DNA of 49,778 nucleotides, from the IMG/VR virus record IMGVR_UViG_2579778554_000010. One strand, given 5' to 3'. Below are positions 21,567-22,531 of this stretch, one piece after another. The DNA comes from a virus (taxonomy: Duplodnaviria > Heunggongvirae > Uroviricota > Caudoviricetes). How positions within the stretch are numbered: position 1 is the stretch's first letter; each line of letters starts with the position of its first letter. The notes below the pieces were generated by a model. The model saw nothing but the letters and a program-made list of their open reading frames with translations. It was not told the DNA's origin and made no database searches. Made by a program: the position numbers and the translations under genes.

Positions 21567-21601
21567 CAGGGTATCAGTTACCCGTTGAAATTTTTAAATA
21601 C

Positions 21602-21835
21602 CTCACAATTCAGGCGGTTGACTGTTGTCTGGTTTGCGGGGAGTTTGTTAAAAGAAACTGGCATGGTGAATCCCCCTGTGCGGAGGGGCAATCAGCAACT
21701 GGTGTTTTGTCACCGACCCTTATCCTTTCTGTGCGGGTTCAGGTGCTGATACTGAACTCACCGGGAGGCACCCGGCACCATGCAATGGCACATAGTGCCA
21801 CTCTCCAGCCCCTCTCCGGAGGGGCTTTTCTGTGC
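21602..21835 (+). repeat. Non-coding module copy 1, ending in a strong intrinsic terminator (21807-21830)
   Basis: Shares ordered blocks with copy 2: CTCACAATTCAG..TTGAC, TGGTGAATCCCCCTG-GCGGAGGGGC, CTGAACTCACCGGGAGGCACCCGGCACCATG, AGCCCCTCTCCGGAGGGGCTTT. Confidence 0.7.
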
Positions 21836-22084
21836 CGGATACATCACAGTTTCTGGAACCTTAGGTACTACAGTATCAGTCAGGGTGCTATATTTTCAGA
21901 TGTGATGAAAGCCTGTCAGCAGGCAGGGCGTATCGGAAATGACCCAGTAGAGAAAACGTTGACTCAGATACCGGTGCTGAGTTACCGGGAAACCGGCATC
22001 ACATGACCGCTATCCTTCCAGGCCCATCCGCTCCGGTGGGCCTTTTTACTGCAGAAAACAGGTTCCCCGTTAAATGCTATGTTG

Positions 22085-22320
22085 CTCACAATTCAGTAAG
22101 TTGACAGTTGCCTGTCAGACTGGGCATTTGTTAAAAAAATTTCGCATGGTGAATCCCCCTGAGCGGAGGGGCGACTGGTGACGGTATAATCTCTGATTAT
22201 CAAAACGAGAATGACGCGGGTTTAGTGGCACCGGGCTGAACTCACCGGGAGGCACCCGGCACCATGTGCATGATGATACAGATACGCGGCTTTAGCCCCT
22301 CTCCGGAGGGGCTTTCTTGT
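22085..22320 (+). repeat. Non-coding module copy 2, ending in a strong intrinsic terminator (22294-22318); contains TATAAT at 22185-22190
   Basis: Same ordered conserved blocks as copy 1, with a divergent middle. Confidence 0.7.
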
Positions 22321-22531
22321 GGGCAAAAAAAGCCCGAGTGGGTTCGGGCAACAGCATGAGATATACATTTTTATAATCGAATGGATTTTAACCAGAATTC
22401 ATAAGGCTGCGCAACTGCGCGGTCTTTTTCGAATTGCGGGCTGTCGTCTCTCTTCTGCCATTGTCCTGTAACTTCCGGACTTCAGCCCGCTCCTTATTTT
22501 ACTCACAATATTATCCCGGCCGGGAGGATTC

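Follow-up and report, generated by a model that had tools for sequence, protein, structure and literature searches.

Convergent pairs of small RNA (sRNA) genes, located 3' of PR' at the moron site, have been described for prophages of enterohaemorrhagic Escherichia coli (EHEC) (Tree et al. 2014; PMC4104026). In the type pair, downstream of stx2B, EcOnc27 faces AsxR; EcOnc27 was seen by Hfq crosslinking (PMC4104026). EcOnc27 of EHEC Sakai corresponds to sRNA103 of EDL933 and overlaps a prediction of the family STnc100; when it was over-expressed, fimZ and espA transcripts reportedly rose, and its variants predict haemolytic uraemic syndrome (HUS) in a machine-learning study (PMC12711010). EDL933 has 11 STnc100 copies that are transcribed (RNA-seq; one was confirmed by Northern blot), and ribosome footprints lie on some of them (PMC5331693). 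STnc100 was also found in vesicles of Shiga toxin-producing E. coli (STEC) (PMC12370729). In enteropathogenic E. coli (EPEC), PasD was detected by Hfq RIL-seq (which ligates and sequences interacting RNAs) and Northern blot (PMC8550237; Pearl Mizrahi 2021), and a 2026 preprint (Zhu, Shabalina, Storz) relates STnc100 to EPEC PasD1 and PasD2, whose genes are located directly upstream of a sialate esterase gene. Here we analyse a gap of 965 nt without annotated gene in the IMG/VR record IMGVR_UViG_2579778554_000010 (49,778 nucleotides; the window, in what follows), an E. coli lambdoid prophage. We show that this gap holds three tandem members of the STnc100 family with an AsxR-like gene facing the last of them, that these members share a covarying fold with a pseudoknot, and that the modules of the family have been shuffled.

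Three tandem genes and their convergent partner

The gap extends from a DUF3927 gene to a nanS-p-type (SASA) esterase gene. By the RefSeq order in a region of identical DNA (Q antiterminator, hypothetical gene, DNA methyltransferase, three tRNAs, TerB, DUF3927, gap, SASA esterase, DUF1378, DUF826, holin, lysozyme), it belongs to the late/moron part of a lambdoid prophage. Over its 961 nt, the array is 100% identical to DNA in the asymptomatic bacteriuria (ABU) strain ABU 83972, in MCJCHV-1 and in many extraintestinal pathogenic E. coli (ExPEC) genomes. A partial match is present in 2781 of 5426 complete E. coli genomes, and a match over at least 80% of the length in 345 of them. In ABU 83972, the identical 961 nt are without a RefSeq gene, which agrees with a preceding sequence-only reading of the gap as non-coding.

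That reading had proposed two repeated modules, each made of four ordered blocks, as candidate sRNA genes. All four blocks are indeed present in both modules. Over 88 nt, 21602-21689 matches 22085-22172 with 80% identity; the 31 nt at 21752-21782 recur unchanged (100%) at 22236-22266, and the terminator blocks at 21807-21834 and 22294-22321 are 93% identical, the spacing between copy 1 and copy 2 being 483-484 nt. A search of the modules against Rfam, a check which the same reading had proposed, returned STnc100 (RF02076) for both: 139.7 bits for copy 1 (match 21632-21837, E 1e-31) and 165.5 bits for copy 2 (match 22115-22324, E 3e-38). Both scores are far above the family's gathering score (GA) of 47 bits, and the repetition is far beyond chance. 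On sequence grounds, copies 1 and 2 are thus full-length members of an already catalogued family. The modules are sRNA genes as proposed, but they are not new candidates. Their convergent layout has been published too, and the arrangement is of a known kind that is ordinary for E. coli prophages.

Two modules do not complete the set. A third, diverged member lies between them (middle copy), and a fourth copy of the 5' domain is located elsewhere in the prophage, on the minus strand (see below). The middle copy matches Rfam STnc100 at 21876-22049 with 30.1 bits, below GA. R1, a covariance model of the 5' domain built in this analysis, gives it 32.8 bits (E 4e-5), compared with 125 bits for copy 1 and 121 bits for copy 2. 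Folded alone, it adopts the family architecture (z = -2.8, minimum free energy (MFE)), and its closing helix P1, hairpin C and hairpin D are kept through compensatory differences. A plus-strand hairpin noticed earlier at about 22023-22048 is real and, in the light of the weak Rfam match, is the terminator (22020-22047) of this third member. Unannotated, the middle copy occurs in 673 of the 5426 genomes, where it has two alleles. One of them, 91% identical, has U-A in place of a C-G pair of hairpin A and A-U in place of a G-U pair of the pseudoknot, and the -10 element TGCTATATT is kept. In a genome with this allele the middle copy again lies between two STnc100-type genes, with iraM, not nanS-p, following the three-gene array, as is seen in strain CREC-629 (L366:1287-1861). 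Six IMG/VR contigs repeat the order copy 1, middle copy, copy 2, and one contig (L127:2326-3350, minus strand) has four tandem members with very different P1, hairpin C and pseudoknot sequences.

On the minus strand, positions 22379-22327 match AsxR (RF02703) with 63.0 bits, exactly its GA of 63. The minus-strand hairpin that had been noted at 22325-22350 is accordingly real, and this match identifies it as the terminator of an anti-sRNA gene of the AsxR/AgvB type. Like AsxR and AgvB (RF02703/RF02702; Tree et al. 2014), the gene has the conserved 3' portion (~42 nt, equal to the consensus), the terminator, a length of ~55 nt and the convergent placement: copy 2 ends at ~22317 and the AsxR-like gene at ~22325, with the terminators back-to-back. 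It differs from them in its 5' region, which departs from the AsxR consensus at 5 positions and lacks the CACAACA motif of AgvB (the GcvB-R1 mimic); the AgvB model gives only 43.4 bits (GA 56). The predicted duplex of its 5' end with the FnrS terminator loop has -7.6 kcal/mol versus -10.4 kcal/mol for the AsxR consensus, and the helices of either duplex are irregular. Among members of the family the convergent partner varies, being of AsxR type, of AgvB type, or of a third type that matches an EPEC RIL-seq hub. A G+C-rich hairpin (22407-22432) that is similar to the PasD-type terminator GGCUGCGCA..GCGC covers part of the -35 region of the AsxR-like promoter. A wider homology between 22380-22534 and the stretch that runs from PasD's tail to the esterase gene was considered as well, and the alignment gave no support for it.

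The array shares with STnc100/EcOnc27/sRNA103 the position in a lambdoid prophage after the stx/moron site and before nanS-p and the lysis genes, the convergent AsxR-type gene and, for copies 1 and 2, a predicted RNA length in the range of ~170-200 nt. In contrast to the Stx phages, the window is a non-Stx prophage of an ExPEC/ABU-type strain with three tandem members. Its 3' tails also differ from those of the STnc100 copies of Stx phages, so that any targets would differ as well.

Table 1. Positions of the array elements and related features in the window
Feature	Position	Strand	Details
Copy 1 upstream block	21602-21623	+	CTCACAATTCAG...TTGACT; conserved
Copy 1 predicted promoter	21625-21654	+	-35-like TTGTCT 21625-21630, 18-nt spacer, TG-extended -10 TGTTAAAAG 21646-21654, predicted +1 at 21661
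STnc100 copy 1 RNA (predicted), ~170 nt	21661-21830	+	Rfam 139.7 bits, R1 125 bits, fold
Copy 1 5' pseudoknotted domain	21661-21783	+	P1 21661-21668/21776-21783
Copy 1 hairpins A, C, D	21673-21688, 21735-21759, 21761-21775	+	fold
Copy 1 pseudoknot	21691-21696 with 21745-21750	+	AUCAGC with GCUGAU
Copy 1 tail; terminator	21784-21806; 21807-21826	+	terminator plus U4
Middle copy TG-extended -10	21886-21894	+	TGCTATATT; predicts +1 at about 21900-21901
Middle copy RNA (predicted), third, diverged member, ~148 nt	21900-22047	+	Rfam 30.1 bits, R1 32.8 bits, MFE fold
Middle copy P1	21900-21907/21997-22004	+	AUGUGAUG/CAUCACAU
Middle copy hairpins A, C, D	21911-21924, 21961-21983, 21985-21996	+	D with GAAA loop
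Middle copy tail; terminator	22005-22019; 22020-22043	+	terminator plus U5
Copy 2 upstream block	22085-22106	+	CTCACAATTCAG...TTGACA; conserved
Copy 2 predicted promoter	22108-22137	+	TTGCCT 22108-22113, 18-nt spacer, TGTTAAAAA 22129-22137, predicted +1 at 22144
STnc100 copy 2 RNA (predicted), ~174 nt	22144-22317	+	Rfam 165.5 bits, R1 121 bits, fold
Copy 2 domain	22144-22267	+	pseudoknot CUGGUG 22175-22180 with CACCGG 22229-22234
Copy 2 unpaired tail; terminator	22268-22293; 22294-22313	+	terminator plus UUUCUU
AsxR/AgvB-family anti-sRNA gene, ~55 nt	22325-22379	-	convergent with copy 2
AsxR-like terminator; -10	22349-22332; 22390-22385	-	terminator plus U7; -10 TAAAAT
G+C hairpin with U-run	22407-22432	+	CTGCGCAACTGCGCGG; between AsxR-like gene and esterase gene
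Scanned terminator-like hairpins	21807-21826, 22294-22313, 22020-22043	+	terminator scan
Scanned terminator-like hairpin	22349-22332	-	terminator scan
Fourth pseudoknotted-domain copy	4391-4516	-	between DicF (4588-4537) and dicB start codon
PR'-tR'-like unit	18883-18981	+	-35 TTGATT, -10 TAAATT 18905-18910, pause-like sequence AACGATGGG
tR'-like strong terminator	18960-18981	+	CCCGCCGCCTGGCGGG plus T6; ~50 nt beyond the PR'-like elements, after Q

Fold, pseudoknot and exchangeable tails

The family was collected from IMG/VR (126 instances, 86 of them unique; 88 sequences including the two window copies), and 45 distinct members from the window, K-12, E2348/69 and viral contigs were used for covariation. 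Matches of a 16-nt pattern to genome contigs were chance hits in unrelated phyla and were left out. In these 45, the helices P1, A, C and D are paired in 98.9% of the cells, a percentage that leans toward the tested structure, as the alignment was fitted to the model. Double changes occur in 17 of the 26 pairs; none of 500 shuffles was as good, and controls in which the pairing was slid were paired to 37-48%. The structure characteristic of STnc100 (closing helix, hairpins, 3' terminator) is therefore supported by covariation. In the MFE folds, the tails that separate P1 from the terminator remain unpaired.

Furthermore, 6-9 nt after hairpin A are always complementary to the loop of hairpin C, forming a pseudoknot that is absent from the structure line of Rfam. 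The two strands are AUCAGC/GCUGAU in copy 1, CUGGUG/CACCGG in copy 2, AAUGAUCGA/UUGAUCAUU in PasD and CAGUUAA/UUAACUG in the DicF-linked copy described below; further classes are AAUGACCA/UGGUCAUU, CUGGCU/AGCCAG and CUGAUUA/UAAUCAG. Every one of these outscores shuffles of its own loop. Since the pseudoknot strands of different classes are out of register in alignments, the complementarity was evaluated by duplex energies, with the loops permuted among nine classes and the register re-optimised each time (a matrix of base-pair counts that allowed G-U had proved too noisy). The summed dG of the nine classes was -81.6 kcal/mol versus -39.2 +/- 7.8 kcal/mol for permuted loops, with 0 of 100000 permutations as low. 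Taken alone, the pseudoknot of the middle copy is weak (-6.3 kcal/mol, p 0.17). While stems and pseudoknot covary, nucleotides in junctions and loops are invariant (GGUGAAU, UCA, and the AGGCA loop). Note that hairpin A does not form in the MFE fold of copy 1, its 3' strand, GUGCGGAGGGG, being paired with CCUUUCUGUGC in the variable region (21677-21735), and that UUUCUGUGCGGG recurs as UUUCUGUGCCGG right after the terminator (repeat D5). This alternative pairing could represent a second predicted conformer or be due to chance.

Across the 88 sequences, hairpins A and D and P1 are almost invariant, and the rest varies in blocks: there are 35 types of internal region and at least 20 unrelated modules of tail plus terminator. 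These modules are freely combined. Copy-2 cores occur with copy-1 tails and copy-1 cores with copy-2 tails, and hybrids of an STnc100 core with a PasD tail and terminator exist as well (e.g., u12). This mixing points to modules, core and seed-bearing tail, that evolve separately. PasD1 and PasD2 of EPEC E2348/69 have the same P1, hairpin A, pseudoknot, hairpin C and single-stranded tail followed by a terminator, and the same position after DUF3927 and before esterase or holin genes; they differ in having no hairpin D and in a pseudoknot sequence, tail and terminator of their own (41 bits with Rfam STnc100). Conversely, the window copies are not PasD genes, as they share only the 5' domain with them; seed, tails and terminator (GGCUGCGCA..GCGCRGCC in PasD) differ.

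The 5' ends of the RNAs can be placed by comparison with PasD2. Its RIL-seq coordinates (741157-741328 in E2348/69) have as their start the first base of P1 (the G of GCAUGGUG, 7-8 nt past TAAAAA), and their end lies in the U-run of the terminator. In all three copies in the gap a TG-extended -10 element ends 7 nt before the first base of P1, so by analogy transcription probably starts at this base. With such starts the predicted RNAs would be about 170, 148 and 174 nt long, and the Rfam model, which begins ~29 nt upstream of the presumed +1, would include promoter DNA. A structured transcript that ends at the terminator of its module, as had been suggested, is also to be expected from the membership in STnc100 and from relatives seen as discrete RNAs.

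Two other promoter elements were rejected. TTGACT and TTGACA of the upstream blocks (21618 and 22101) lie 25 nt from the -10, too far for a -35, and TTGACT of PasD aligns with TTGTCT/TTGCCT at 18 nt. The TATAAT at 22185-22190, which had been pointed out in copy 2, is present as described, but a promoter role does not follow: it has no -35 or TG partner, was not reported by the promoter scan and lies inside the RNA, within its variable B region, where the nearest relatives have TATGAT, TGTCAT or TGTTAT. The octamer CTCACAAT occurs only three times in the 49.8-kb window (21602, 22085 and 22502), always on the plus strand and always in the array region; the first two occurrences open the upstream blocks of copies 1 and 2, and the third is found 30 nt upstream of the ATG of the esterase gene. 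The RIL-seq target motif of PasD is CUCACA, and its relation to these octamers may be a coincidence.

The fourth copy of the domain, following DicF (4537-4588, minus strand, 76.7 bits), scores 52.1 bits with R1 (E 3e-9) and 38.7 bits with Rfam STnc100, i.e., below GA, as does the middle copy. It has neither a promoter nor a terminator of its own, its P1 is extended to 17 bp, and it lies ~27 nt before the dicB ATG and ~13 nt before the Shine-Dalgarno sequence. The Qin prophage of K-12 has the same element, unannotated (NC_000913 1649455-1649580; L244:1956-2081), and homologous DNA is present in 4558 of the 5426 complete E. coli genomes (about 84%). In viral contigs, the element always follows the DicF terminator and precedes different open reading frames (ORFs). 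A recent study of dicBF regulation does not mention it. Processing by RNase III at the extended P1 was considered and discarded, as the mapped RNase III site is upstream of DicF.

Late-region and other neighbouring features

A scan of the region found 8 terminator-like sites, compared with 1.7 +/- 1.7 expected. Upstream of the array, right after Q, lies a unit (18883-18981) that is likely a counterpart of lambda PR' with its tR' terminator; it has no match among Rfam families and would give a short leader RNA similar to 6S or StxS. It lies 2.7 kb upstream of the modules and is unrelated to them in sequence, and the modules accordingly do not qualify as a PR'/tR' unit of the lambda 6S or StxS type.

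Of the other RNA genes in the window, the tRNA at 20551-20626 (plus strand) was called tRNA-Met (anticodon CAT) by ARAGORN, and the identical gene is tRNA-Ile in RefSeq, i.e., of the ileZ type found in Stx-like phages, a tRNA that once modified to lysidine is read as Ile. A sok antitoxin RNA is located beside hokD (13736-13911, plus strand, 117 bits).

Possible functions of tails and domain

We propose that the array consists of sRNA genes at the moron site of the late operon, three of the STnc100/PasD superfamily on the plus strand and one AsxR-like gene on the minus strand, and that the former are stand-alone genes which would be expressed in the lysogen and act through their 3' tails. Judged from sequence and relatives, we give this a probability of roughly 0.8. 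Each plus-strand gene would have its own sigma-70 promoter with a TG-extended -10, and the first base of P1 would be its +1. The RNA would take up a compact fold in which P1 encloses hairpins A, C and D and the variable B region and which is locked by the pseudoknot that joins the loop of C to the junction following A. An unpaired tail of 15-26 nt and an intrinsic terminator would follow, giving RNAs of ~150-175 nt in the lysogen. By analogy to PasD and EcOnc27, the tail beside the terminator may be the Hfq-associated region that pairs in trans with host and prophage mRNAs, and the structured domain would then be its conserved scaffold. During lytic growth, Q-modified polymerase would read through all terminators. 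For this strain, we infer the promoters, start sites, expression, Hfq dependence, seed location and targets.

The sequence-only reading, which on the whole is partly supported, had placed target pairing in the divergent centre of the modules. This part of it is wrong or incomplete: the centre is located inside the folded domain, and the only mapped seed of the family, UGUGAG of PasD (itself inferred), is found in the 3' tail, where the RNA is single-stranded from P1 to the terminator (E2348/69).

Several observations speak against such a mode of action. The PasD seed (TGTGAG at the DNA level) is absent from 21570-22531, and with tails that do not contain it no PasD target can be transferred to the window copies. 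In the hfq deletion, the counts of PasD1 and PasD2 are not lower under activating conditions (log2 fold change -0.18/+0.55), whereas those of PasA, PasB and PasC do fall (PMC8550237, table S2); the text of that paper describes the stability of PasD as Hfq-dependent. The structured relatives may be independent of Hfq for their stability. Copies 1 and 2 have short U-tracts with interruptions (UUUUC and UUUCUU), poor for both termination and Hfq binding. Finally, hairpins A and D, the junctions and the pseudoknot are conserved more strictly than the scaffold of a seed needs, and the same domain occurs without tail or terminator downstream of DicF.

The latter two points suggest a separate function of the conserved knotted domain. 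Going further, the pseudoknotted four-helix domain could be a mobile RNA module that is autonomous and has a biochemical role of its own, e.g., binding of a host or phage protein or of a ligand, or in RNA processing or stability, the tails being cargo and the domain the effector. It would then appear in two guises, as the 5' body of the STnc100/PasD sRNAs and as the unannotated element right after DicF in ~84% of complete E. coli genomes. We offer this tentatively, as a possibility with the odds against it.

Still less likely is that the domain acts in cis, as a leader which regulates or stabilises its downstream sequences (here, read-through of the weak terminators into nanS-p and the lysis genes; after DicF, dicB-type ORFs) and which might bind a protein or small ligand or block RNase attack, the sRNAs being by-products. 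This would account for the domain without promoter and terminator between DicF and various ORFs (in the window, in K-12 and in the 4558 genomes) and for its location shortly before the Shine-Dalgarno sequence, and it fits the weak U-tracts of copies 1 and 2 and the frequent position of PasD and STnc100 directly upstream of the esterase gene. The element resembles riboswitch-like or other structured leaders in some respects: junction and loop nucleotides are invariant while stems covary, a pseudoknot is present, and it is followed either by a terminator or by a ribosome-binding site, depending on the context. In contrast to such leaders, however, it has no conserved expression platform, no consistent class of downstream genes (nanS-p, iraM or holin) and no known ligand, and the STnc100-type element has its own predicted promoter and would give a stable terminated product. 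Tails and terminators are freely swapped, even between identical cores, which does not agree with a riboswitch or attenuator, and no conserved alternative pairing of domain and terminator was found, though no systematic search was made. The 17-bp P1 of the DicF-linked form is too stable for a switch. Three tandem copies, each with its own predicted promoter and a +1 at the first base of P1, fit stand-alone genes better, and relatives give discrete RNAs of the expected size.

That the modules are non-functional repeats, either remnants of a duplicated late promoter/terminator, as the sequence-only reading had allowed, or recombination scars, is highly improbable. Moron regions of prophages are mosaic and recombine often, and the modules have been shuffled between phages, but compensatory changes keep four helices and a pseudoknot across diverged copies, relatives give stable RNAs, and the real PR'-tR' unit of this prophage is unrelated in sequence to the modules. 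Equally remote, and rejected here, is that the modules encode small proteins from the ATG of CACCATG after GGGAGG (ORFs 21780-21905, 41 aa, and 22264-22359, 31 aa): GGAGG and an ATG 11 nt later are conserved, both ORFs translate the terminator as SPSPEGL, and some EDL933 copies carry the ribosome footprints mentioned above (PMC5331693), but frame, length and sequence are not conserved, the 88 members having unrelated sequences, all three frames through the terminator, lengths from 2 aa up, and in some cases GTG or no start codon at all; the ATG and GGAGG are parts of P1 and hairpin D, and the ORFs extend past the terminator, so that the terminated RNA would have no stop codon.

Much of the array is of a familiar kind: annotators based on Infernal and Rfam (e.g., Bakta) would label both modules STnc100, and the convergent layout was described in 2014. 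RefSeq nevertheless leaves this 1-kb sRNA array blank in hundreds of ExPEC/ABU genomes. Beyond the Rfam model, we found the covarying pseudoknot, the independent shuffling of core and tail, and the unannotated copy of the domain beside DicF. Of the sRNA annotations made in bacterial genomes, STnc100 is one of the most abundant, and it is statistically linked to the HUS outcome in O157. The present analysis provides handles on this family, namely probable start sites, a covarying pseudoknot that can be mutated, the modularity of core and tail, and a K-12 copy of the domain beside DicF that allows its study in a non-pathogen.

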